Origin: Candidatus Multivoradales bacterium
GTDB lineage: Bacteria > Acidobacteriota > Thermoanaerobaculia > Multivoradales > JAHEKO01
Reading direction: 5' to 3'
NCBI GenBank assembly: GCA_965248055.1
Contig: CBDFIJ010000004.1
Location: forward strand, 988,299 to 1,052,298
Length of the DNA: 64,000 nt
Of the stretch, positions 28,262 through 39,914 are shown piece after piece. Made by a program: the position numbers and the translations under genes. Under the pieces are notes generated by a model that was not told where the DNA came from, did no database searches, and saw only the letters and a program-made list of their open reading frames with translations. Position 1 is the stretch's first letter. Each line of letters begins with the position of its first letter.

Positions 28262-28851
28262 TTATTCGCTGTCAATCTCGGAAAGGTAGAGATCCCCTCG
28301 CGAAGTGGAGAGCGAGTAGACAATCCCTTCCTGGGTCAGCGCCATGGTCGCCGCGTCTTCTAGCTCGCTTTTTGCTTCGGTCTCCGCCAGTTTGGCCAAG
28401 CCACAGGTCCAACACTTTCGCCTGCCCTCTCTGGTTCACCATCACGTTGGCGGGTTTGAAGTCACAGTGGATGATTCCCTTAGCGTGAGCTTCGGCCAGG
28501 GCGTCGGCGATGGGAATGGCAAGATCAAACAGCTTGCTGAGCCCAAGACCATCTGCAGGAACGTGCTGGTCAAGAGTCTCACCTTCCACCAGCTCCATAG
28601 TCAGGAAGTGAATCCCGTCGGTTTCTTCGACCGAGTGGATGGTGACGATATTGGGGTGGTTGAGCGCTGCCACCGTCTTGGCCTCGCGTTTGAAGCCCTC
28701 CAAACGATTGGGATCGCTGGCCAGCCGCTGGGGTAAAACCTTTAAGGCTACTGAAAACGGCTGAGCCCTCCGTGCCCGATACACCTCTCCCATTCCCCCC
28801 TCGCCGAGCTTGGAAAGGGATACGGTAGTGAGACAGCCTCTCTCCGATCAC
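28262..28851 (-). pseudogene. Ser/Thr protein kinase remnant (frameshifted, truncated)
   Basis: GTG + MIGERLSHYRI, then +1 shift into the frame encoding LSKLGEGGMGEVYRA (Gly-loop), ALKVL (VAIK), and a degenerate catalytic loop HCDFKPANVMV. A second shift follows near LD(FG)LAKL, with termination ~190 aa before the activation segment/APE. Confidence 0.55.
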
Positions 28852-28960
28852 CAGTTTGTGTCCTTTCGAGATAGAGATCTTTCGCTCGGCTCAGGACTCA
28901 GCGCCGAGCGCCTCGGCTTGGCGGTGATCTGGTAGTGAGAGAGGGTGGTACCAATCACGC
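28795..28960. repeat. direct repeat copy 1 (~165 bp, ~85% identical to 29700-29878) covering the kinase 5' end and upstream hairpin
   Basis: Base-by-base comparison of the two stretches. Both contain GAGATCYTTCGCTCGGCTCAGGACTCAGCGCCGAGCG. Confidence 0.75.
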
Positions 28961-29401
28961 CAGCGGGTCCTCGACCGCTAGTCCCGGGATGGATTGGAAG
29001 TTGCGATCATGAGTCCAGATCACCGAGGCTCCGTTGTCAAACGCCGCCAAGGCGATCTGAAGGTCGAAGACCCGCACACCGCGGATGTCCCGGTCTGTAG
29101 CAACCTGCAGTAGCCGAGGGCCGAATTCCGGGCCAGGCCGCCAAAGACGGCCGCCGCCGTCTACCAATCCCTGCAAGAAAGCCTGTGCCTCGAGTGGCTC
29201 AGAGGGGCGACCGGTAGCGGTCGGATGGGTCACGATGCTCCAGAACTCGGCGATCGCAGGCGAGGCAACACCCCAACCACGACCACTGTCGGCAGCTCGT
29301 TGAATCGCTTCGCGCGCCGCGGCGTGCTCAGAAACCCCAGTGCGATGGGCGTAAACCAAAAGGTTGGTATCGATGGCGATCACGATACCGTTCGCAACCA
29401 T
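28955..29401 (-). CDS. vapC: PIN-domain ribonuclease toxin
   Basis: IAIDTNLLVYA (acidic PIN residues), 148 aa. Overlaps the upstream antitoxin gene by 22 bp. Confidence 0.8.
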   Translation of the reverse strand: MVANGIVIAIDTNLLVYAHRTGVSEHAAAREAIQRAADSGRGWGVASPAIAEFWSIVTHPTATGRPSEPLEAQAFLQGLVDGGGRLWRPGPEFGPRLLQVATDRDIRGVRVFDLQIALAAFDNGASVIWTHDRNFQSIPGLAVEDPLA

Positions 29402-29625
29402 TCACGCATCGCGGCGCGATCGGCGACGTCTATCCCCGCAGGTAGGCCTCCATTCACCGTCACGAACTCGAGTCGCTGAGTTCGATGCTCCGCGATCGGT
29501 CGATCGCTCTCCAGCTCGCGCCGCAGGCCACGGGTAAACAACTTGCGCAGAGTCGTCCTCTCTTCTGCGGCCTTTTTCTTGGCCGCGACCAGCAACTCTT
29601 CAGGTAGGTCAATGGTGGTTTTCAT
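29380..29625 (-). CDS. vapB: type II antitoxin (VapB-like, MKTTIDLPEELL family)
   Basis: 81 aa. MKTTIDLPEELLVAAKKKAAEE is characteristic of VapB/ribbon-helix-helix antitoxins. Confidence 0.65.
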   Translation of the reverse strand: MKTTIDLPEELLVAAKKKAAEERTTLRKLFTRGLRRELESDRPIAEHRTQRLEFVTVNGGLPAGIDVADRAAMREWLRTVS

Positions 29626-29674
29626 GAACCCATATTGCCATATTTATGGTTATACGGCACATCTCATCTTGGCC

Positions 29675-29764
29675 TCACTGCACTTTCGCGCGATAAACCT
29701 CTTTCATCCCACCTATGCCCAGCTTGGAAAGGATGCGGTAGTGAGACAGTCTCTCTCCGGTCAT
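29675..29764 (-). pseudogene. 30-codon kinase N-terminal remnant (MTGERLSHYRILSKLGIGGMKEVYRAKVQ*) inside direct repeat copy 2
   Basis: Hand translation. Intact Gly-loop in frame, preceded by AAAGGA, but terminates after 30 codons. Confidence 0.4.
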
Positions 29765-29878
29765 CAGTTCGCGTCCTTTTGAGATTGAGATCCTTCGCTC
29801 GGCTCAGGACTCAGCGCCGAGCGCCTTAGCTTGGCGCTTATCTGGTAGTGGGAAAGCGTGGTGCCGATCAGTTCCCCC
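29700..29878. repeat. direct repeat copy 2 flanking vapBC
   Basis: See copy 1. Same orientation. The vapBC pair lies exactly between the copies. Confidence 0.75.
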
Positions 29879-29905
29879 CCGGTCCACAGGCACTATCACC
29901 TAGGG

Positions 29906-30340
29906 TTAGTCAGCGGCTTCTACCTCGTCCGGCGCTTGTGACAACTCCACCAACACTCCCCCTGCAGAGCGCGGATGGATGAACTGAACCCAGCAACCTC
30001 CCGCACCCAGGGTGGGCTGTGGACGGAGGACATCTGCGCCTGATTCTTCCAGTTTGAGTTGGTCAGCGTGGATGTCATCAGTGGCAAAGCAGATGTGGTG
30101 GACGCCTGGACCGCGCTTGTCGAGGAAGCGTCGTACGGGCGAGTCTTCAGTGGTGGGTTCGAGTAGCTCGATCCGGGTCTCACCGACTTCGATCATTGCC
30201 ACCCGAACGCCCTCTTGGGGTACCTCTTCGATGTGATCGATAGTCAGTCCTAGGGTCTGGTAGAACTTGGCTGACTCCTCGATCGACTCGACGGCAATGC
30301 CAATGTGATCATATTTTGAACTGCCACGGTTGACCTGCAA
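29906..30340 (-). CDS. methylmalonyl-CoA epimerase (VOC/glyoxalase family)
   Basis: DHIGIAV ... HHICF pattern. 144 aa. Confidence 0.65.
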   Translation of the reverse strand: MQVNRGSSKYDHIGIAVESIEESAKFYQTLGLTIDHIEEVPQEGVRVAMIEVGETRIELLEPTTEDSPVRRFLDKRGPGVHHICFATDDIHADQLKLEESGADVLRPQPTLGAGGCWVQFIHPRSAGGVLVELSQAPDEVEAAD

Positions 30341-30346
30341 GGCCCC

Positions 30347-31543
30347 TTACCGGTTATCCAGGAGTTGGCGCGCTATCACCAATCGCTGAATCTCACTGGT
30401 CCCTTCGCCGATCGTGCAAATCTTGCAGTCGCGGTAAAACTTCTCAGCACGGTAATCCTTGATGTAGCCATAGCCACCGTGGATCTGCACTCCGCGCTCA
30501 GCACAAAACACCGCAGCTTCTCCGGCGTAGAGCTTGGCTTCCGCGGCCAAGCGAGTCACCCGCTCTCCACGATTCATTTTTTCCGCCGCTGCCATAACCA
30601 GCGCTTCGGAGGCGGCAATGCGGGTCGCCATCTCGGCGAGATGAAACTGCACCGCTTGAAACTTGGCGATCGCCTTGCCGAACTGTTCCCGTTCCTTGGA
30701 GTAAGCCAGCGCCAGATCGAACGCGCCCCGAGCAGTCCCCAAGCCCAAAGCGGCGATCGAAATTCGTCCGCCGTCGAGAATCTTGAGCGACTGAATGAAG
30801 CCGTCGCCGCGCTCCCCCAACAGATGGTCATCGGGAACCAAGCAGTCCTCCAAAATCACCTCAGACGTGTCCGAAGCGCGGCTTCCCAGTTTGTCTTCCT
30901 TCTTACCGGCACGAAATCCCTCCATCCCCTTCTCAACCACAAACGCAGAAATATTATGGTGCCGGGGTGCATCTGGATCGGTAACCGCCAGGACCACGCA
31001 GACGTCGCCTACTTTGCCGTGGGTAATAAAGGTCTTGGAGCCATTCAGCAGCCACCCACCATCGACCTTCTCGGCCTTGGTCCGCGTCCCTGCAGCGTCT
31101 GAGCCCGCTCCTGGTTCGGTCAAGGCCCAAGCGCCGATCTTGCGCCCGGTGGCCAAATCTGGCATCCAACGCTGGCGTTGTTCTTGGTTGCCAAACTTAT
31201 AGATGTGCTGGCTGCACAAAGAGTTATGGGCTGCGACCGAAAGCCCGATCGACGGGTCGATCCGGCTAATCTCATCCAAAATCAGGACGTACTCAATGTA
31301 GCCCAGGCCAGCGCCCTCGAACTCCTCTGGAACGACCACACCGAGAAAACCCAACTCGCCCATTTTGGCGAATAGTTCCCGCGGAAACTTCTGTGCTTCG
31401 TCGATTTCTTCAACGATCGGATCGATTTCTTGCAAGGCGAAGTCGCGTGCGGCCTCACGGATGGCGCGCTGCTCTTCAGTGAGTCCGAAATCAATCCCGG
31501 AATCGGTTTGCACTGGCGTCGTTGATGCTGTTGCTGTGGTCAC
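30347..31543 (-). CDS. acyl-CoA dehydrogenase (short/branched-chain type)
   Basis: ACAD N-terminal, middle and C-terminal domains. ALTEPGAGSD, GGYGYIKDY, catalytic E in IGEGTSEIQ. Confidence 0.85.
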   Translation of the reverse strand: MTTATASTTPVQTDSGIDFGLTEEQRAIREAARDFALQEIDPIVEEIDEAQKFPRELFAKMGELGFLGVVVPEEFEGAGLGYIEYVLILDEISRIDPSIGLSVAAHNSLCSQHIYKFGNQEQRQRWMPDLATGRKIGAWALTEPGAGSDAAGTRTKAEKVDGGWLLNGSKTFITHGKVGDVCVVLAVTDPDAPRHHNISAFVVEKGMEGFRAGKKEDKLGSRASDTSEVILEDCLVPDDHLLGERGDGFIQSLKILDGGRISIAALGLGTARGAFDLALAYSKEREQFGKAIAKFQAVQFHLAEMATRIAASEALVMAAAEKMNRGERVTRLAAEAKLYAGEAAVFCAERGVQIHGGYGYIKDYRAEKFYRDCKICTIGEGTSEIQRLVIARQLLDNR

Positions 31544-31748
31544 TCTGGCATGCCCCCCTCAGCGGTCAAGGATATCTCTTGTCGGTCGTCATCGGAACCA
31601 GACCTCAGGAATGCAACCGCGATGGGGTCACAGGCAGGTGGATTGAGATAGATACCGGCCCTCCTCCCTAACCCCCGCCGGGATGACATAGAAGAGGCTT
31701 CTCCGCCGGGATGCCCCGAGGGGAGTCCCGACGATGGTCATACCGGTC

Positions 31749-31890
31749 TGAGGCACTTCAACGTGTCGTTCCACACTGAGACACTTCATCGTGTTGTCCC
31801 ATCCTGAGACACTTAATCGTGTCGTCCCACACTGAGGCACTTCAGCGCGTCATCCCACGCCGTGGAACATCAACGCGTCGTCTCCTTCAG
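31749..31890. repeat. 28-bp imperfect tandem repeat x5 (TGAGRCACTTNANCGTGTYGTCCCAYNC)
   Basis: Aligned by eye. Flanked by partial F1-type elements (..CCTAACCCCCGCCGGGATGAC..) at 31663-31691 and 31995-32025. Confidence 0.7.
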
Positions 31891-32077
31891 TACTTCCTCG
31901 TCATCCTCGTAGGGTGGGGGTTTTGGGGATCGAGGATCTCCAACAGCGTCAGCGACCCACAGCCAGTATCTGGACGGCCACCGAATCCCGTCCCCCCTCC
32001 CTAACCCCCGCCGGGATGACGATGGGTGGAATCTCCTCTGCCTCTTGTTCAGAGGCGGTCCTGCTGTTGTCTGGTGA

Positions 32078-32110
32078 CGAAAAAAGTGTCCCCGCTGGAA
32101 CGAAGGGGAG
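32078..32110 (-). terminator. candidate intrinsic terminator downstream of the BMC operon (weak hairpin + T6 on the minus strand)
   Basis: Minus strand reads ..TCCCCTTCGTTCCAGCGGGGACACTTTTTTCG.. Confidence 0.3.
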
Positions 32111-32167
32111 GAAGCTGAAGTTCGGCTGTTGTCTTATCGAGAGAACAAGACCCTAACCGCGGCAACC

Positions 32168-32437
32168 CTAAGTCAGATCAACCGAGTCAACAATCCCCAC
32201 CACCATGGTGCGGATCGGTGCGGTGTCATCAAGCATAATCTGGCGAGAGGAGTTACCCTCGTCCAAGATCAGCACCACTTGATCGACGCCCGCGCCCACC
32301 GCGTCGATCGCCAAGGTGTAGTCGCCCTCGGGTTGCAAATTGGGGCTCAGCCACTGGCAGATCAACAAGCGCATACCATCGCGAACCGGATGATGGATGG
32401 TTGAGACCACGGTCCCGGTGACCCGAGCGATCTTCAT
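32168..32437 (-). CDS. BMC vertex protein (BMC-P; EutN/CcmL/PduN family), paralog 3
   Basis: MKIARVTGTVVSTIHHP.. is the canonical EutN/PduN N-terminus. 89 aa. ATGA overlap with the upstream gene. Confidence 0.8.
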   Translation of the reverse strand: MKIARVTGTVVSTIHHPVRDGMRLLICQWLSPNLQPEGDYTLAIDAVGAGVDQVVLILDEGNSSRQIMLDDTAPIRTMVVGIVDSVDLT

Positions 32438-32703
32438 GCCGTGCGATCCGGATGCTCGATCTGATCGACCAGGCCGACAATCGCGTGATCGACCGGCACG
32501 AACCAGGGGTCCATCGCCACCGCAGCTTCTCTGCTAGCAACGTAGTAAATCTCTTGACCGACGCCGGCTTGGCCGGTGGCGTCGGCGGCGACGATTGCCG
32601 ACCCGTTCGGTGACCCATCCTCGGCCAGCGGGCTGACAAGTAGCAACCGCATTCCGTCCATGCTTGAGACGCGCATCGTTGCCACTACGCTGCCGGTTAC
32701 CAT
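32434..32703 (-). CDS. BMC vertex protein (BMC-P), paralog 2
   Basis: Start set at the ATG giving MVTGSVVATMRVSSMDGMRLLLV.., 11 nt after the upstream stop. 89 aa. Confidence 0.7.
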   Translation of the reverse strand: MVTGSVVATMRVSSMDGMRLLLVSPLAEDGSPNGSAIVAADATGQAGVGQEIYYVASREAAVAMDPWFVPVDHAIVGLVDQIEHPDRTA

Positions 32704-32714
32704 CCCCAAATGCA

Positions 32715-33317
32715 CTAGTCGGGGCTCCCAACCGAGTCGGTATTGATCCGAGAGTGAAACAACGGTGCCTGCTCTAGGTTGCGCCAAACGTCCTCGCCGA
32801 GCTGGGCGATCAGTCGCTGCTCCAACACCACTTCTGGGTGAGCCAGGGACCCGACTCCGGCCTCCATCGCCGCTTGAACCTCATGCAGAACGCCAGAGAA
32901 CAGCAAGTAGCCCTTGCCTCCAAGGCCGTCGGCCATGCGTAGCGTCGCGATCGAGACCTCTGCCCCTTTGACGCCCGCATCGGCAACTTGCAGCAGGCCG
33001 GCGACGGTTTTTGTCTCGACGATCCCCAAAGCTTCACCCGAACGCTGATCGGTCTCCGTCAGAGCTTTCACCACCGCAGGATGAACGTCCGGCAATAATA
33101 CGCAGTCCAAGGGTTGAGCTAGGCCGATGGCGGCACTGCGGGCCTCGTCAACCGGTCCTACCTCGCCAGCCGCCAGGATCAAGAATCGCCCGGGTTGGAC
33201 TGTTCCCAGCCGCAAGTCTCCAAGTGGCGCTCGCTTGGCCATGGCGTCCGCGGCGGTGATGCCAACCGCGATCGATTGGTACTCCATCAGCAGGATGGCT
33301 GGATAATTTTGCGACAT
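32715..33317 (-). CDS. BMC-T shell protein, tandem BMC domains (PduT-like) lacking the Fe-S cysteine
   Basis: Two Pfam00936-like domains (AILLMEYQSIAVGITAADAMAKRA.. and ALGIVETKTVAGLLQVADAGVKGA..) aligning along PduT. The position of the PduT Cys is occupied by Q (GTVQPGRF). Confidence 0.8.
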   Translation of the reverse strand: MSQNYPAILLMEYQSIAVGITAADAMAKRAPLGDLRLGTVQPGRFLILAAGEVGPVDEARSAAIGLAQPLDCVLLPDVHPAVVKALTETDQRSGEALGIVETKTVAGLLQVADAGVKGAEVSIATLRMADGLGGKGYLLFSGVLHEVQAAMEAGVGSLAHPEVVLEQRLIAQLGEDVWRNLEQAPLFHSRINTDSVGSPD

Positions 33318-34810
33318 TAGACGATGCGCAGGCTGCCGACCACCGTCAGCCTACGGATGCGTGAGAAAGTGCGCGGTCGAGACAGGCCTTCCCCAGTTGG
33401 TGTGGCGATCGAGAACGAGGAGAAGCCCTCGCCCATTTGACCCAGGCCGGCGAAGTTGGAGCAGTTGGCGACGAAAATTGAGCAGTTCATGCGCCGCGCC
33501 ATCTCGGTAATCACGTCGACGTTGCGTGAATAGACCGAGGCGGTGTGGCGAAACCCGTGTTCCGCGGTCACCGAGAGCTGAATGCCTTCCTCCACGTCTC
33601 TCACCCTTACCACCGGCAGCACCGGCATCATCTGTTCGGTCCAGACCAAAGAGTGCTCGCGCGGGACTTCTGCCACCACCAGCCGAATCTCATCGCCAGC
33701 ACTAACGCCGATTTCAGCCAAAATCTTGGCCGCGTCTTGACCCACCCATTTGCGATTAATCCTGCCGGGCTTGCCGGCGGGGCCTAGCTCCTCAAAGATC
33801 GCCCGTTCCAGCTTGCGCAACTCGTGGTCGCGCAGCACTTGCGCTCCATTGGCGGCCATCGCCTTGACCAAATCGTCGGCCACCGCGTCGACCACAAAAA
33901 CTTCCTTCTCGTCGGTGCAGACCATGTTGTTGTCAAAAGATGCGCCTTGAACGATCGAGCGCCCAGCGTGGGAAATGTCCGCGCTGTCGTCGACCAGCAC
34001 CGGTGGATTTCCAGGGCCTGCGGTAATCGCTCGCTTGTCCGTCTTGAGTGCTTCCTTAACCACCCCTGGCCCTCCGGTGACCAGCAACAGGCGGATCTTG
34101 GGGTGCGACATCAGGTCTTGTGCTGACTCGATGGTCGGTTCGGCGATACAGGTCGCCAAAGTCTTGGGCCCTCCTGCCTCAGCGATCGCTTCATTGAGCA
34201 TGCCGACGTTCTCGGCGGAAACTCGTTGCGCACCCGGGTGGGCATTGAACACCACCGAGTTGCCGGCGGCCACCATGGCAATGGTGTTGTTGATCACCGT
34301 CGAGGTTGGGTTGGTGGTTGGAGTGATCGATCCAATGACGCCAAAAGGGGCGTACTCGGTGAGCATCTGCCCGTGGTCCCCGGTGACCACCTGCGGTTCC
34401 AAGTCTTCCGGGCCGGGGGTCTTGGTGGTGACTAAGCGATTCTTAAGGATCTTGTCGGCAATGCGGCCCAAGCCGGTTTCAGCGTGGGCTGCGCGTGCCA
34501 GATACTCACCTTGCTCCAGCATCCGCGCCCGCATCGCCTCGACCACCCGAAACCTACGATCCAGGCCCATCGCGGCAAAGCTTTTCTGTGCCTCGAAGGC
34601 AGCGTCTACCGCTTCATCAACGGTGGCGAAAGCGCCGAGAGGATAGGCATCGCGCGATGAACGCCCAGCCTGGTTCTTGGGTTGGCTCTGGGCTTGGCCC
34701 TGGCGGGTAGGAGAAACCGGAGGTGCCACGCGAGGCGCACCAGCGGCGAACCGCTCCCGCACCCGGCTGATCACCGCCTGTACGTCACCGTCAGCGCGCG
34801 CCGCAGCCAC
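33317..34810 (-). CDS. CoA-acylating aldehyde dehydrogenase (PduP/EutE family) with ~110-aa N-terminal extension
   Basis: Catalytic Cys in NNMVCTDEKE. GPGNPPVLVDDSADI. GTG start with GGGAG upstream. N-terminus has amphipathic DVQAVISRVRERF followed by a P/Q-rich linker (possible encapsulation peptide). Confidence 0.85.
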   Translation of the reverse strand: MAAARADGDVQAVISRVRERFAAGAPRVAPPVSPTRQGQAQSQPKNQAGRSSRDAYPLGAFATVDEAVDAAFEAQKSFAAMGLDRRFRVVEAMRARMLEQGEYLARAAHAETGLGRIADKILKNRLVTTKTPGPEDLEPQVVTGDHGQMLTEYAPFGVIGSITPTTNPTSTVINNTIAMVAAGNSVVFNAHPGAQRVSAENVGMLNEAIAEAGGPKTLATCIAEPTIESAQDLMSHPKIRLLLVTGGPGVVKEALKTDKRAITAGPGNPPVLVDDSADISHAGRSIVQGASFDNNMVCTDEKEVFVVDAVADDLVKAMAANGAQVLRDHELRKLERAIFEELGPAGKPGRINRKWVGQDAAKILAEIGVSAGDEIRLVVAEVPREHSLVWTEQMMPVLPVVRVRDVEEGIQLSVTAEHGFRHTASVYSRNVDVITEMARRMNCSIFVANCSNFAGLGQMGEGFSSFSIATPTGEGLSRPRTFSRIRRLTVVGSLRIV

Positions 34811-34898
34811 TAGCTAGCTCCCCGAGCCCAAGCCGCAGACCCACCAAGTCGTGACCTGAATCGCGACCCGGCACCGGGTCTTGGACAGCTTGGCCCCA

Positions 34899-35195
34899 TT
34901 AGCCGTCGCCCTTGCGGTAGACCTCACGCCCCTCGACGTCCCAACTGTCGACAATCGCCATAATCACCGCATCGCAGGGGCGATCTTGGGTGGCCACCGT
35001 CTGCCGCGCCGAGCTGCCAGTGGCATAGAGCACCACTTCGCCCTCGCCCGCACCCACCGCGTCCACCGCGACCACGTAGCCACCGGTAGTTTTGGCTCGG
35101 TCGTCGAGTTGTTCGACCACCATGAACTTGAATCCAGCCACTCCGGGGTCTTTCTGGCTTGCCACCAGATTACCGACCACCTTGCCAAGCAGCAT
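34899..35195 (-). CDS. BMC vertex protein (BMC-P), paralog 1
   Basis: MLLGKVVGNLVASQKDPGVAGFKFMVVEQ.. 98 aa. Confidence 0.8.
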   Translation of the reverse strand: MLLGKVVGNLVASQKDPGVAGFKFMVVEQLDDRAKTTGGYVVAVDAVGAGEGEVVLYATGSSARQTVATQDRPCDAVIMAIVDSWDVEGREVYRKGDG

Positions 35196-35198
35196 CGA

Positions 35199-35489
35199 CT
35201 AGCTCTTTTTGGGCGCGCGACCCAATGGCAACGCCGCGTCGACGTTGTTGTGCGGACGAGCGATCACATGAGTGGAGACCACTTCACCGACTTTTTCGGC
35301 TCCGCGTACCCCTGCCTCAACCGCTGCTTTCACCGCGGCAACGTCGCCCCGCACCACGGCAGTGACGTAGCCACCGCCGGTCTTTTCATAACCCACCAAG
35401 TCAACCTTGGCCGCCTTCACCATCGCGTCGGCGGCTTCGACCATGGCGGAAAAACCCCGCGTCTCGATCATTCCCAGTGCTTCAGCCAT
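35199..35489 (-). CDS. BMC-H hexameric shell protein (PduA/EutM-like)
   Basis: [29 protein letters not shown].. Start at ATG 35489 with AAGGAG 6 nt upstream. Confidence 0.85.
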
Positions 35490-35597
35490 ACTCTTCTCCT
35501 TCGCCCTCAGGCGATTGTCCATTTCTTGTTAATAGCTCTCTTTACAAACTGCATTGACTGCTTTGCTTCCACTTGGCCCTTCTAACTAGCCCTGCGT

Positions 35598-36224
35598 CTA
35601 GTCGACCTTGCGTCCGTCGATCCCATCCAGGGCCGCAACTGCTGCCCGCCAACCGACGTCAATATCTCTCTCTTCACCGCCCAGGTAGACCCGGCCGAAA
35701 GAACCGATCGAGCGAACCTCCAAGACGTTGATCCCGGATGCTTTCTCGGCCTCGTTGGCGGCCAGAGCAGCGTACGGAGCGGGTTCCACCTCCAGCACAT
35801 ATAGCGTCTGCCCTGGAATAATCATCTGCCCATGCCGCATGCGATTCACCAATTGCGCTTGGTGGTCGTCAATCGCCCGCACGATTTGGCTAGAAAGCAC
35901 TTTGGGTTTGATTCGGTCACTCTCCTTCAAGCCAATGTCAGCCAAGATCGCCTCGCCCGCAGCGCGAGTCTCGGCTTGGTCCTCCGAATGGACTTCAAGT
36001 AACCCGTAGTAACGCTCGACGACCTGCATCCCCGGGCGAACCCGGGTTGACTTCAGCGCCACATCGGTCAGCCGATTAATTTCGATTCCCGGTGAAATTT
36101 CTACATATAACGAACAATCCCCGGCCAAAGGTAAGAACCCTTGTGCCACGGTGCCCATAAAAGCAGCGTATTGCGGCTGCAAGCTGTCCAAAAATACGTA
36201 CGATCGAAGATCAATATCCGCCAC
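35598..36224 (-). CDS. BMC-T shell protein with circularly permuted BMC domains (PduB/EutL-like)
   Basis: TDVALKS..V.. and [29 protein letters not shown] match the permuted-domain hallmarks of PduB/EutL. Start placed at GTG 36224 (AAAGGA 8 nt upstream). The longest ORF reaches 36374 but would overlap deoC by 160 bp. Confidence 0.6.
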
Positions 36225-37104
36225 TTGCCCCATCCTTTCGAGAAACAATGTCCTTTCCGGAGACAATCGAAATTCCTGCTGACGCGCCGATGCGGGTCGC
36301 GCCAACATTGATGAACTCGCGGACCTGTTCCGCGGTACTAATTCCACCCGACGCCTTGACCTCAAGGTCACCACCCACCGCTTCGTGCATCAACGCCACG
36401 TCATACAACTCTGCACCACCGTTGCCGAAACCGGTCGAAGTCTTGACGAAGTTGGCTTTCGCCGATTTGGCCAACCGCGACGCGACGACCTTTTCCTCAT
36501 CGGTTAACAATCCGGTCTCCAAAATCACCTTGCAGGTGGCGCCAACTTCGCGACAGGCGTCGGCAACCTTAGCGATGTCCTGCTCGACCGCTTGGTAATC
36601 ACCACTTTTCAGAGCGCCAATGTTGATCACCATGTCGATCTCACGTGCACCATCGCGCAACGCCTTGCGGGTTTCCATCGCTTTGATCTCGGTGCTGTGG
36701 GCACCCGAGGGAAACCCAACCACCGACGCCACCCGCACCGGAGAATTGCGCGTGCGCGAAGCCGCTCGGGCAACCCAAAACGGGTTGACACAGACCGCGG
36801 CAAAGCCGTAATGCTTAGCCTCATCACACAGTTGGTCGATATCGGCGGCTGTTGCACTGGGCTTCAACAGGGTGTGGTCGATGTATTGCGCCAAATCAGA
36901 CGGTACCCGACCTCCCTCTCCGTTATAGGACACACGGCGCGCACCGGTGTGGACGATCGCTCGCACCTTGTCCGAACAACAGGCGGCACAACTGCCCTCG
37001 CAGTCACTGCATTCACCTTCACTGCATTCACCCCCACTGTCTGCGCCCAGCGCGGCTAGAACTTTTTCGGTGATCTGGTTGATCAATTGCTCTCGGTCAC
37101 TCAC
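36211..37104 (-). CDS. deoC: deoxyribose-phosphate aldolase with ~75-aa N-terminal extension (amphipathic helix + Cys-rich linker)
   Basis: DeoC core YIDHTLLKP ... KVILETGLL ... KTSTGF (Schiff-base Lys region). N-terminal [15 protein letters not shown] + [25 protein letters not shown] start 3 nt after the rpiB stop. Confidence 0.85.
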
Positions 37105-37107
37105 GGT

Positions 37108-37611
37108 TTACCTCGCGCCATAGGTGCGCTCAAGTTCGTCAATCTTAGCGACTCGCAGTGCGTGGCGCCCAGGACCGTGCGGTGTCGCCAGCCAAGTGTC
37201 GACAATCTGCAAAGCCAGGCCCCTGCCGATCAGCCCGGCACCAAGGGTCAAGACGTTGGCGTGGTTGTGTTCGCGGCTGTTGCGCGCCGAAGAAATGTCA
37301 TAACAGAGGGCCGCGCGCACACCGGGCACCTTGTTGGCGGCCATCGCTGATCCAATACCCGCACCGTCAACCACTATTCCAGCGGTTGCGGACCCGTTCG
37401 CCACTTTCTGCGCTACTGCGTGCGCCATATCTGGATAATCCACCGCTTCCGGCCCGTTGGTACCGCAATCGATCACCCGGTGTCCGGTGTCGGCTAGGTG
37501 CGCCGCAATGGTGTCTTTCAATTCGAATCCGCCATGGTCTGCCCCGACCGCGACCACCAAGTCACCCCCACCATTGACCTGCTGCGTTGTGGACACACCA
37601 GCAGCGGCCAC
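37108..37611 (-). CDS. rpiB: ribose-5-phosphate isomerase B (RpiB/LacAB family); true start possibly internal near 37554
   Basis: VGADHGGFELK, catalytic Cys in VIDCG, HN..ANVLTLGAGLIG. Confidence 0.85.
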   Translation of the reverse strand: MAAAGVSTTQQVNGGGDLVVAVGADHGGFELKDTIAAHLADTGHRVIDCGTNGPEAVDYPDMAHAVAQKVANGSATAGIVVDGAGIGSAMAANKVPGVRAALCYDISSARNSREHNHANVLTLGAGLIGRGLALQIVDTWLATPHGPGRHALRVAKIDELERTYGAR

Positions 37612-37732
37612 GGAGGCGATCGGCCCGGTCTCTGAGGCGACTTCCGAGGCGATGCTCTCGGCTACTGCCTGAGCTACTAACTCTCGAATTCGATCTGGAT
37701 CAGGTTTCAGCGTTGACTCCGTTCATTACAAG

Positions 37733-37797
37733 ACTTATTTACCACAGGACCTATTTGCCACAGGACCTATTTGCCACAGGACCTATTTACCACACCC
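37733..37797. promoter_or_regulatory. 16-bp tandem direct repeat x~4 (CTATTTRCCACAGGAC) in the region upstream of the BMC operon
   Basis: Seen directly at 37733-37797, ~125-190 bp upstream of the rpiB start on the minus strand. Each unit contains TGTGGYAAATAG on the coding strand. Confidence 0.5.
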
Positions 37798-37844
37798 TTA
37801 ACAATAATGTTTATCTAATATCCGCTGCGACTCCCGCAAAACCG

Positions 37845-39914
37845 TCATGAGAGGTCTGGAGCCGCGGTTCGAATCGCCCCCAATTGGTCAATCTGCTCCA
37901 GTTTCAACCCGCTGTAGTAGTGATCCAAAATCTCGGTAAAACCGGACCCGCGAAGCGCCATCCGGTAGGCACCCCGCTGACACATCCCCACCCCGTGCCC
38001 CCAACCGCGACCACTGAAAACCCAACCCGGCGCCTGTTGGCTGCCACTACTACGACGCACCCGAAACCAAGTCTCCGGGATATCCAAGAACCAGCGGATC
38101 GACAACCCTTTGAGCTCGCGGGTCTCTCCGCCGGTGCCATGCAACTTAAAGGTCTTCAAACGGCCGGAAACCCCCCGCTCGCCGAGCTCGAAAGAACGAT
38201 AACCAAAACCCGGAAATTCGGCGCTGGCTCGACGCGCCAAATCGCTGTCACTGCGGTGCTCACTCCATACCTTGGTCCCCGGTGCCCGGCTGGCATTACG
38301 ACTACTACGGGCTGGGATCAACGCCGCCACCGGATCACCCTCCACCAGCACCACGCGCACCGGATCCCCGGCCGCCAAGAGGCCATCGCCAGGGGCCTGC
38401 CAGTGCCACACCGTATCCCCAGGAAGGAGTAGATCTCCCTGCGCCGAACCCTGGGTTTGCACCTTGAAAGCAGCTTGGCTGCGAGCGACGAATTTGGTCG
38501 ACTGCTCGACCACCAGTGCCACCTCTTGAGCGACTTGATAGAGGATTCGGCGCAGATCGGCCAACAGTACGTGCTTACTCCCCTTGGGCAAACGCCGCAG
38601 AGAACCCGCCAATGGCTGATGATCATCAGCCACGGTTGCCGAAAACCAAGCCGGATCGGCGACCAGGTCGAGTACCGAGCCAAGAAAGCGGCGCACCTCG
38701 GAACCGATAAAACTCTCTAGGCGATCTTCACCCGGGGTTAGACCCGCCTTCTTCATCAATCGGCGAAAGGATTCGCCCACCTCCCGTGGGCTCGATCCCA
38801 GATCGCCGATCAGCCTACGCATGACTCGGCTCTCGATCACCGTCCAATCGCCCCGCCGACCGATTGAAACTAGGCCCCCTTCAATGCAGGGCACCCCACG
38901 AAGATAAGAATGGTGCTTGGCCGGAAAGACGGTTGCGACATCCTCGGTGTGACCACCGCAGGTCGCGGTATACAGAGTGTCTGCGGGGCGCCGGTCGGCG
39001 GTCACCAGTACCAGTCCGGCGGTTTCGCTCACCGCCTGATTCGACAACGGCTGTTCCGCCCCTAAACCTCCAAACACCTGGCAACGCGGCGTCGCACAAA
39101 CATCAAAGCCCTCAGCGGCAAACTCGCCCAAGTTGTGCAGTACATAGGATCGGGCGGCTACCGCCAACGCCTTGAGAGCATCCAGGTCGTTGTAGATTTT
39201 CGGCCCCATTTCCCGGGGCACCACGCCCCGCAGGTAATTCTCCAACTCGGTCACCAACACCACATTGATCGAGCCCCGGCGATTCAAGGTCAGTTGCAAA
39301 CCGCCACGATAAGTGCCCCCGGCCCAAGCCATAGGCCCACCGTCGGACCGCCGGACCACAACGGTGGTACCCGCCTTTTGCGCTCGGGAACCGGTAATTT
39401 GTAGACCCGCGTTGGCGATCTCACCGATCTCTTCGACCACCCAAGCGTCACGACCGCGGGCGCTCAGACGAGCCTGAGCGGCGACCGCGTCCTGACGTTG
39501 GTGCCAAATCCCCAACCGAACCCGCGTTAGTCCGGTCTCAGCATCGAAAGCGAGATCCGACGATAGACCGGTGAAACGCTCCAAGTCCTCAGCAAGTCGT
39601 TGCGCTTGCGCGGGCTCACGCAGCGCCGCAATTTGCAATCGGTAGCTCCAAGCCCGGACTACATCTCCTGTTGGCCGTACCACCAAATGCGATCCTTGAT
39701 CGACAACCTGACCTCCGGCGATCACTTCCATGGCGTGGCGACCGGCCAACACCACCTCCCGCACATCGGTCGCCAACCCCACCCGGAGTTGAAATTCTTG
39801 AGGCTCGCCTTCGAGCGCCGGCCAAAGCGGGCGCGAGACAACTAGGCCCAGGTAAGCCACAGCACAAACAACCGCGAAGCGAATCACGGGGCGGCGTTGG
39901 AAAAAGATTCTCAA
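37845..39914 (-). CDS. SpoIID/LytB-domain protein (cell-wall amidase enhancer family)
   Basis: Central SpoIID-like block (..NYLRGVVPREM.., ..AVAARSY.., GFDVCATPRCQVFGG). N-terminal TM helix. Confidence 0.7.
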   Translation of the reverse strand: MRIFFQRRPVIRFAVVCAVAYLGLVVSRPLWPALEGEPQEFQLRVGLATDVREVVLAGRHAMEVIAGGQVVDQGSHLVVRPTGDVVRAWSYRLQIAALREPAQAQRLAEDLERFTGLSSDLAFDAETGLTRVRLGIWHQRQDAVAAQARLSARGRDAWVVEEIGEIANAGLQITGSRAQKAGTTVVVRRSDGGPMAWAGGTYRGGLQLTLNRRGSINVVLVTELENYLRGVVPREMGPKIYNDLDALKALAVAARSYVLHNLGEFAAEGFDVCATPRCQVFGGLGAEQPLSNQAVSETAGLVLVTADRRPADTLYTATCGGHTEDVATVFPAKHHSYLRGVPCIEGGLVSIGRRGDWTVIESRVMRRLIGDLGSSPREVGESFRRLMKKAGLTPGEDRLESFIGSEVRRFLGSVLDLVADPAWFSATVADDHQPLAGSLRRLPKGSKHVLLADLRRILYQVAQEVALVVEQSTKFVARSQAAFKVQTQGSAQGDLLLPGDTVWHWQAPGDGLLAAGDPVRVVLVEGDPVAALIPARSSRNASRAPGTKVWSEHRSDSDLARRASAEFPGFGYRSFELGERGVSGRLKTFKLHGTGGETRELKGLSIRWFLDIPETWFRVRRSSGSQQAPGWVFSGRGWGHGVGMCQRGAYRMALRGSGFTEILDHYYSGLKLEQIDQLGAIRTAAPDLS

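Follow-up and report, generated by a model that had tools for sequence, protein, structure and literature searches.

A conserved tetracysteine motif, possibly a metal site, in the N-terminal extension of a microcompartment aldolase

The window analysed here is a 64,000-nucleotide stretch of the genome of Candidatus Multivoradales bacterium (Acidobacteriota; contig CBDFIJ010000004.1, positions 988,299 to 1,052,298). It carries a bacterial microcompartment (BMC) operon, whose gene content points to the SPU6 subtype of the SPU microcompartments, and this operon encodes a deoxyribose-phosphate aldolase (DERA, product of deoC) with a long N-terminal extension. In this extension, a cysteine-rich stretch lies between a candidate encapsulation peptide (EP) and the enzyme. 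Judged from its sequence and its conservation, this stretch is a discrete tetracysteine motif, placed between a PduD-like helix and a helix-strand unit, and not a low-complexity linker. We propose, with a confidence that is about evenly balanced, that the extension is a composite module in which the four Cys form a metal site, most likely for zinc, that would stiffen the junction between the helix and the enzyme.

The tetracysteine motif of the aldolase extension

The DeoC protein matches the Pfam family PF01791 (DeoC/LacD aldolase) at residues 72-279 (75 bits, for a cut-off of 23.8), and its best homologs (n = 120; 63-87% identity) are 280-302 aa long. DERA structures of the PDB align from residue 68-70 on (E ~1e-68, best identities 53-58%), which leaves about 68 residues ahead of the barrel, and solved DERAs do not have this extension. 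The long stretch that the original prediction placed before the aldolase core is thus found again in both the Pfam and the PDB alignments. The best Foldseek matches of the DeoC model have the DERA TIM-barrel fold, with a target-normalised TM score of 0.82-0.90. Moreover, the predicted catalytic Asp, Schiff-base Lys and second Lys (D102, K167 and K201 in Escherichia coli) are all present: D157, K221 and K250 are invariant among 68 DeoC homologs, and their spacing of 64 and 29 residues is that of D165, K229 and K258 in the characterised SPU6 enzyme.

The deoC gene is translationally coupled to the upstream rpiB-like gene, its GTG start lying 4 nt past the TAA stop of the latter, with a Shine-Dalgarno (SD)-like GCGAGG just 5' of it. 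The N-terminal extension is common to 120/120 best homologs, all opening with an M-x-x-R-E-x-L-I helix, and codons 32-68 show 25 synonymous and 2 non-synonymous differences between the window and the closest genome locus (L087). From the shared helix and the 25:2 ratio, the extension (residues 1-68) is translated, and codons 32-68 are under purifying selection. The start codon assumed at the outset is upheld by this common N-terminus, by the SD-like sequence and by the conservation of the extension at the protein level.

The original prediction described an 8-cysteine linker. The Cys cluster is real, but the peptide concerned contains six Cys (C27, C32, C35, C39, C42 and C43), with none elsewhere in residues 1-75, and four of them (C32, C35, C39 and C43) make up a conserved motif with the spacing C-x2-C-x3-C-x3-C. 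The interval first given for this stretch, ending at 36980, also stops four bases short, since the codon of C43 ends at 36976. We aligned 139 sequences, down to 32% identity. C32, C35 and C39 are Cys in all 139 and represent three of only nine invariant columns, while Cys is found at position 43 in 138/139 and Gly at position 37 in 133/139; the conservation of the four Cys equals that of the catalytic core. At position 42, which is variable, His is commonest (55 sequences), ahead of Cys (30) and Ser (17), and the column of C27 is a gap in 90/139. Because the four Cys are conserved and C27 and C42 are not, the stretch is better described as a tetracysteine motif with lineage-specific extras than as a Cys-rich linker. 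With its flank, the consensus is C-x-[DE]-C-x-G-x-C-A-A-x-C-[SPA]-D-K-V-R. Among 121 close homologs, the number of Cys per extension ranges from 4 to 8 and is never below four.

The additional C27 derives from a tandem duplication. As had been noticed before, part of the Cys stretch is encoded by a duplicated sequence, which proves to be an exact in-frame 15-nt tandem repeat translated as GECSE and GECSD. Tandem Repeats Finder (TRF) gives a period of 15, 1.9 copies and 100% matches, and the exact 14-mer GGTGAATGCAGTGA is found at 37004-37017 and 37019-37032. A homolog with 87% identity (P0001) has a single copy of the 15-nt unit.

Two AlphaFold2 (AF2) runs, with 68 and 139 aligned sequences, were used for the structure of the extension. 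Both place a helix at residues 3-21/23, with a predicted local distance difference test score (pLDDT) of 81-89, and L7, V15 and L19 of this helix reach a conservation of 90% or more. Its amphipathicity, which the original prediction put forward, holds for residues 5-15 (hydrophobic moment of 0.58); over an 18-residue window, the moment is not above that of shuffles. In addition, residues 1-16 of DeoC are identical in register to residues 1-16 of the PduD EP at 8 of 16 positions, a value reached by 0.05% of shuffles (the EP sequences compared, of 16-18 residues, were confirmed as present in PMC5405515). The DeoC helix is therefore EP-like in sequence and in the model, with a putative targeting role. 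Its earlier designation as a candidate EP also agrees with its terminal position, with the linker of variable length that follows it and with its restriction to this DERA lineage.

Residues 20-31 vary in length and correspond to gap-rich columns across homologs, and AF2 is unconfident over residues 22/23-34/38. Within the motif, C32 and C35 are in this unconfident loop, which AF2 cannot settle when no ligand is present, and C39-C43 are on a short helical turn (39-42) running into the next helix. The latter belongs to a helix-strand unit (helix 44-52, strand 57-60; pLDDT 71-79), after which the barrel begins. V47, R48, V51, G54, A55, R57, G62, G64 and P68 are conserved in this unit, which is retained even by homologs without the cysteines. 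A comparison of its pattern 'KVR..V..GA.R[IV].Y' with the alpha-beta units of designed TIM barrels revealed only a weak and non-significant likeness.

When the extension by itself was used as a profile for an exhaustive search of 1.84 billion protein representatives, 110 clusters were obtained. With one exception, a partial match to a repetitive protein of 1075 aa (P0155), they appear to be N-termini from this lineage of DERAs. The gene of one extension-bearing DERA (P0224, L084:10001-10918), with a helix and a C-x2-C-x5-C-x3-C motif, has a pyrimidine-nucleoside phosphorylase gene as its neighbour and a deoxynucleoside kinase gene close by. The 10 kb on each side of it are free of BMC shell genes, which makes this locus an exception to the BMC-only context; P0224 would be either cargo encoded by a satellite gene or a DERA that has the extension but no BMC.

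Divergent DERA subfamilies keep the four Cys with an altered early spacing (CxC, Cx3C, gaps of 3-5). The arrangements found are CxC-x3/4-C-x3-C, C-x3-C-x4-C-x3-C and C-x2-C-x5-C-x3-C, the last pair being always C-x3-C. The motif is also kept in loci of another SPU architecture, in which RpiB, DERA, BMC-P, aldehyde dehydrogenase (AldDH) and BMC-H genes follow one another and are accompanied by a CsoS1D-like BMC-T. Two longer proteins have it as well: an RPI-DERA fusion of 531 aa (P0175), whose inter-domain segment still contains the helix, together with the motif in a six-Cys version, and a protein of 466 aa (P0219), in which an N-terminal domain of about 200 residues opening with an EP-like helix is followed by C-x2-C-x5-C-x3-C and the DERA.

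We then considered the replacement and loss of the motif. The distribution over 255 unique extensions is bimodal: 156 have all four Cys, 43 are without the motif and 20 lack only the fourth Cys. When this fourth Cys is lost, His occupies the preceding position in 19/20 (…C-A-A-H-S-P-D-K-V-R), compared with 51/165 when it is present, and in some lineages it has become Ser with the neighbouring His kept. The Cys3-His state occurs in separate places of a neighbour-joining (NJ) tree built from the catalytic core only, on which at least 7 changes between Cys4 and not-Cys4 are counted, the tree having no support values. In Acidimicrobiia and some Chloroflexota, a decay series leads from Cys4 to Cys3-His (CxDCHGSCAAHSPDKVR), Cys2-His, a single Cys (DVCDTGDKVR) and none, with examples at the DERA 5' ends of loci L005, L012, L014, L015, L017, L019, L021, L025-L028 and others. 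The signs by which the original prediction would have recognised a simple linker are thus divided: some BMC-associated homologs are indeed without the motif, but in those that have it, its variation is not that of a low-complexity linker.

Three correlates of the motif were tried. Gene content was compared between Cys4 and other loci (79 loci); no ferredoxin, thioredoxin or metal-handling gene tracks the motif, and the test, confounded by phylogeny, picked only lineage markers (e.g. a SorC/DeoR-type regulator in Chloroflexota loci) and antisense ORFs. Cys4 and motif-less lineages did not separate cleanly into aerobes and anaerobes, with lifestyles that we assigned from general knowledge. Finally, the idea that the motif is a PduS substitute specific to SPU6 was weakened, because it occurs outside the SPU6 architecture, in the other SPU architecture and in RPI-DERA fusions.

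A metal site and its alternatives

In the mechanism that we favour, the EP-like helix (residues 3-21) would tether the enzyme to the shell or to other cargo. Next comes the variable acidic/Gly linker, lengthened here by slippage, the 15-nt duplication having added one non-conserved Cys. C32-x2-C35-x-G-x-C39-x3-C43 would then bind one metal centre, most likely a structural Zn2+, in a site combining a knuckle with a helix N-terminus, and a His at position 42 could replace the fourth Cys as a ligand. The metal would turn a floppy junction into a rigid hinge, by which the targeting helix would be held in a set position with respect to the aldolase; the helix-strand unit 44-68 then connects to the TIM barrel. 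The layout of the extension, its conservation, the purifying selection, the association with BMCs and the pattern of loss and replacement are observed, whereas the binding of a metal, which metal this would be and the structural part played by the motif are inferred; some metal or redox capacity of the Cys is plausible.

A single metal centre is proposed on account of five features: the near-invariant Cys within 12 residues, the knuckle Gly, the constant C-x3-C at the start of a helix, the Cys-to-His exchange and the all-or-none retention of the motif. In the 139-sequence alignment, the four conserved Cys/His ligands form two close pairs with a knuckle Gly, as expected of a zinc knuckle. The recurring Cys3-His state, for its part, suggests the behaviour of a ligand set.

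Several points weigh against such a site. Searched against Pfam, the extension has no match at E up to 10, and no zinc-finger or Fe-S family was found; its profile gave only chance-level matches against the PDB. AF2 confidence is low over residues 23-38 in both runs, and a span of 12 residues for four ligands is unusually compact for Zn(Cys)4. Many SPU6-type loci, mostly from Acidimicrobiia and some from Acidobacteriota, are without the motif and have the first helix, the 44-68 unit and the operon intact. Since it is lost while the whole operon is kept, the motif is dispensable for encapsulation, catalysis and organelle upkeep. Furthermore, the NJ tree is unsupported, and horizontal transfer could inflate the count of 'independent' events. 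Without its extension, the aldolase also keeps its activity and its binding to RPI (Dwyer, Sutter & Kerfeld 2024, Commun Biol, PMC11585597), so that the motif is dispensable for catalysis and for the formation of this complex. In the same study, SPU6 DERA could be obtained in soluble form from E. coli only without the extension, and the insolubility of the full-length protein is compatible with an EP, with an unfilled metal site or with both.

Rather than a structural Zn2+, the four Cys could hold an Fe-S cluster ([4Fe-4S] or [2Fe-2S]), as a redox- or O2-sensitive sensor for assembly or tethering, or as one element of a route for electrons within the SPU6 organelle. We regard this as possible, though unlikely. 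CX2CX3C is the start of the cluster-binding site in some enzymes, Cys3-His ligand sets exist for Fe-S clusters also, and Pro follows the last Cys in 18/139 homologs, as in ferredoxin CP motifs. BMCs already contain the Fe-S proteins PduS, PduT and GrpU and the tetracysteine extension of PduK (PMC6325248), SPU6 is the sole subtype without PduS according to Dwyer et al. (PMC11585597), and insolubility upon aerobic expression in E. coli would fit an unassembled cluster. However, the extension has no Fer4 or other Fe-S Pfam match. Its spacing is CX2CX3CX3C, with a first half that varies between subfamilies and a Ser past the last Cys in the window; it thus has neither the CX2CX2CX3CP pattern nor the Fer4 match that define a ferredoxin-type [4Fe-4S] site. 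The ligands are flanked by acidic residues (D34 and D45), DERA chemistry has no need of electrons, and no flavin or NADH site is nearby. In the two shell proteins checked, Cys are also scarce: BMC-H has none and the tandem-BMC protein has one (C72), neither possessing a Cys-rich segment. Lastly, the presence of the motif in another SPU architecture means that it does not track the absence of PduS, and it is kept in Gaiellales and Nitriliruptoraceae, which we take to be aerobic.

Whatever the metal, a redox-active role of the site is doubtful in our view. By this role, the site, as an Fe-S cluster or a reversible Zn/thiol switch, would control cargo tethering, core condensation or enzyme release in SPU BMCs.

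A metal-free alternative is that the Cys form reversible intra- or intermolecular disulfides, which would lock or cross-link the cargo once the lumen becomes oxidising, i.e. a redox-sensitive tethering. The even number of Cys, in a CxxC and a Cx3C pair, and the extra Cys beside the motif in many lineages (5-8 Cys in 61/121 extensions) speak in its favour, and the carboxysome scaffolds CcmM and CsoS2 have redox-sensitive Cys. It is nevertheless improbable: the His found in 19/20 cases where the fourth Cys is lost fits an exchange of ligands and not disulfide pairing, the knuckle Gly and the constant C-x3-C at a helix start are hallmarks of metal sites, and cytoplasmic proteins with four conserved Cys in 12 residues usually bind metal.

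Still less probable, and already disfavoured, is a compositionally biased, slippage-prone linker without specific function. Slippage did occur in this genome, as the 15-nt duplication attests, similar CS[DE]/EC repeats exist in other lineages, about one-fifth of the family has lost the motif with the operon kept, and AF2 confidence is low. Against this stand the four (near-)invariant positions in 139 sequences, next to linker columns that are gap-rich and variable, the 25:2 ratio of synonymous to non-synonymous differences and the retention of the motif in distant subfamilies and fusion proteins. As for a true start further downstream, leaving the extension untranslated, its probability is negligible: automated annotation often truncates these genes (Dwyer et al., PMC11585597), but the M-x-x-R-E-x-L-I opening of 120/120 best homologs, the GTG 4 nt past the rpiB stop with its SD-like GCGAGG, and an extension conserved as protein while diverged at synonymous sites all contradict it.

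The microcompartment operon and its neighbourhood

From the Pfam matches, the operon reads, on the minus strand, RpiB-like, DERA, BMC-T (CsoS1D-like), BMC-H, BMC-P, acylating AldDH, tandem-BMC, BMC-P and BMC-P. The coordinates of these genes and of the parts of the extension are listed below.

Positions in the window of the DERA extension and of the genes of the BMC operon
Feature	Position	Strand	Basis
RpiB-like gene, with its own EP-like N-terminal helix	37108..37710	minus	Pfam LacAB_rpiB, 176 bits
DeoC/DERA gene	36211..37104	minus	297 aa, GTG start; ORF list, sequence, Pfam, homologs
EP-like amphipathic helix, residues 3-21 (putative)	37042..37098	minus	AF2, hydrophobic moment, PduD match, conservation
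Variable acidic/Gly linker, residues 22-31, including non-conserved C27	37012..37041	minus	Gap-rich columns, AF2 pLDDT <50
In-frame 15-nt tandem duplication, GGTGAATGCAGTGAA/GGTGAATGCAGTGAC on the coding strand (GECSE vs GECSD)	37004..37032		TRF, exact search
Tetracysteine motif, residues 32-43, C32-S-D-C35-E-G-S-C39-A-A-C42-C43	36976..37011	minus	139-sequence alignment
Conserved helix-strand unit, residues 44-68, joint between motif and barrel	36901..36975	minus	AF2, conservation
Class I aldolase TIM-barrel core, residues 69-297	36214..36900	minus	PDB DERA alignment
Operon part past the DERA gene	32168..36374	minus	Pfam; gene order as in related loci
BMC-T, CsoS1D-like	ORF 35598-36374, probable start M48 = 36233	minus	Pfam
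BMC-H	35199-35522	minus	Pfam
BMC-P	34899-35195	minus	Pfam
AldDH	33317-34810	minus	Pfam
Tandem-BMC protein	32715-33317	minus	Pfam
BMC-P	32434-32787	minus	Pfam
BMC-P	32168-32437	minus	Pfam

We gathered related loci in GTDB genomes with a full-length DERA alignment. All 80 loci are BMC operons with an identical gene order (80/80), and they belong to Chloroflexota, Actinomycetota, Thermoanaerobaculia/Acidobacteriota, one myxobacterium and one alphaproteobacterium. The closest genome locus, L087, has the same order, a DERA with 83% identity and a BMC-T of the CsoS1D_N type. The SPU-type locus assumed in the original prediction is thus supported by the Pfam gene content and by these 80 loci. No match to PduS or PduL/PTAC was found among the larger ORFs scanned at 28272-39914 or in the gene list of L087. 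This absence is a trait of SPU6, the one subtype without PduS (Dwyer et al., PMC11585597), and by gene content the operon of the window matches the SPU6-type BMC of Sutter et al. 2021 and Dwyer et al. 2024 (PMC11585597). SPU ranks among the BMC types of widest distribution, its loci numbering more than 280 over 26 phyla (PMC8217296).

The EP-like helix of the RpiB-like protein, PDPDRIRELVAQAVAESIASEV (37611-37710, minus strand), is encoded 5' of the first canonical start, a GTG at 37611, and there is no in-frame ATG, GTG or TTG 5' of this position. The CTG at 37708-37710 is the homologous codon of the TTG start of rpiB in L087, and GGAG precedes both. By this comparison, the RpiB-like gene likely starts at the CTG, and automated callers would drop its targeting helix. 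In the intergenic region that separates the start of the BMC operon from the SpoIID/SPOR gene, four tandem copies of a 16-nt unit, ACAGGACCTATTTACC (TRF score 106, 92% matches), occupy 37728-37794, where L087 has a single GGTAAATAAG-like copy; these copies could be operator or iteron sites.

On the other side of deoC, the BMC-T ORF overlaps the 3' end of the DERA gene (36211-36374). The 209-aa gene of L087 points to M48, at 36233, as the probable start of the BMC-T, and the overlap of this start with the last DERA codons suggests translational coupling. Moreover, the BMC operon is followed, on its own strand, by an acyl-CoA dehydrogenase gene and a glyoxalase-family gene in the window (29906-31543) as in L087 (L087:14469-16524), and these two may be conserved accessory genes of this sub-lineage.

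Significance and comparison with known systems

The signature enzyme of SPU BMCs was characterised only recently, after removal of the extension from an insoluble full-length protein (PMC11585597). A conserved four-Cys site would imply that a cofactor or redox element is missing from the expression protocols, which offers a hypothesis for this insolubility. What is called an 'encapsulation peptide' would here be a composite module (helix, putative metal knuckle, helix-strand unit) and not a simple tag, a distinction relevant to the cargo loading of engineered shells, and the Cys3-His and motif-less variants would provide natural controls or mutants. Were the site to prove redox-active, no earlier metal or redox switch would be known from the cargo-targeting domain of a metabolosome. 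Such redox control of cargo, if true, would be without a described precedent among metabolosomes, and would matter especially in SPU6, which is without the PduS redox module.

The closest known system is the SPU6 DERA of Chloroflexi bacterium GWB2_54_36 (PMC11585597). Dwyer et al. described an extension of about 70 residues on all SPU DERAs, modelled as a helix and two low-confidence strands, considered the whole of it to be a putative EP and removed it so as to have the protein in soluble form (PMC11585597). The GWB2_54_36 enzyme has the same general layout as the DeoC of the window, i.e. about 70 residues with an amphipathic helix and then a poorly modelled segment, the D/K/K residues at +64 and +29, the same operon type and an extension absent from non-BMC DERA. 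The main text of that paper contains no 'zinc', 'iron-sulfur' or 'Fe-S', and the word 'cysteine' occurs there solely in connection with the active site of RPI and the settings of mass spectrometry; the tetracysteine motif and its Cys3-His and motif-less variants are not described there. Nor is the motif mentioned in the BMC surveys of 2014 and 2021 (PMC8217296) or in a text search of the literature, and a search for the stand-alone CX2CX3CX3C spacing returned only substrings of ferredoxin signatures. The extension was therefore already known, while the conserved tetracysteine site, with its Cys3-His and motif-less variants, appears to be unreported.

The EPs of PduD, PduP and EutC likewise form, at the N-terminus, a short amphipathic helix with a linker behind it. 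No Cys is present in the sequences compared, whereas DeoC interposes a conserved module of about 45 residues; to our knowledge, no conserved Cys motif lies between a classical EP and its enzyme. The C-terminal tetracysteine extension of PduK, together with PduT and GrpU, are BMC proteins in which conserved Cys, on an appended segment or at a pore, are proposed or shown to hold a metal cluster (PMC6325248). These are, however, shell proteins and not a cargo enzyme, with another spacing and no sequence relationship to the extension; the known metal sites of BMCs are in shell proteins (PduT, GrpU, the PduK tail) or in PduS (PMC6325248), and no such site is known from the domain that targets a cargo enzyme.

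Outside BMCs, the likeness is to compact zinc knuckles, such as the retroviral CCHC knuckle (C-x2-C-x4-H-x4-C) and the CxxCxG of rubredoxin and DnaJ. They share with the DeoC motif the ligands within 12-14 residues, the CxxC-x-G signature and the Cys/His interchange at one ligand position, but the DeoC motif has no profile or structure match. Lastly, in CcmM (SSUL) and CsoS2, as in DeoC, Cys in a cargo-organising part of a BMC protein could respond to the redox state of the lumen. In these dedicated scaffolds, the Cys are pairs in repeated domains, whereas DeoC carries a single tetracysteine cluster on the signature enzyme itself.

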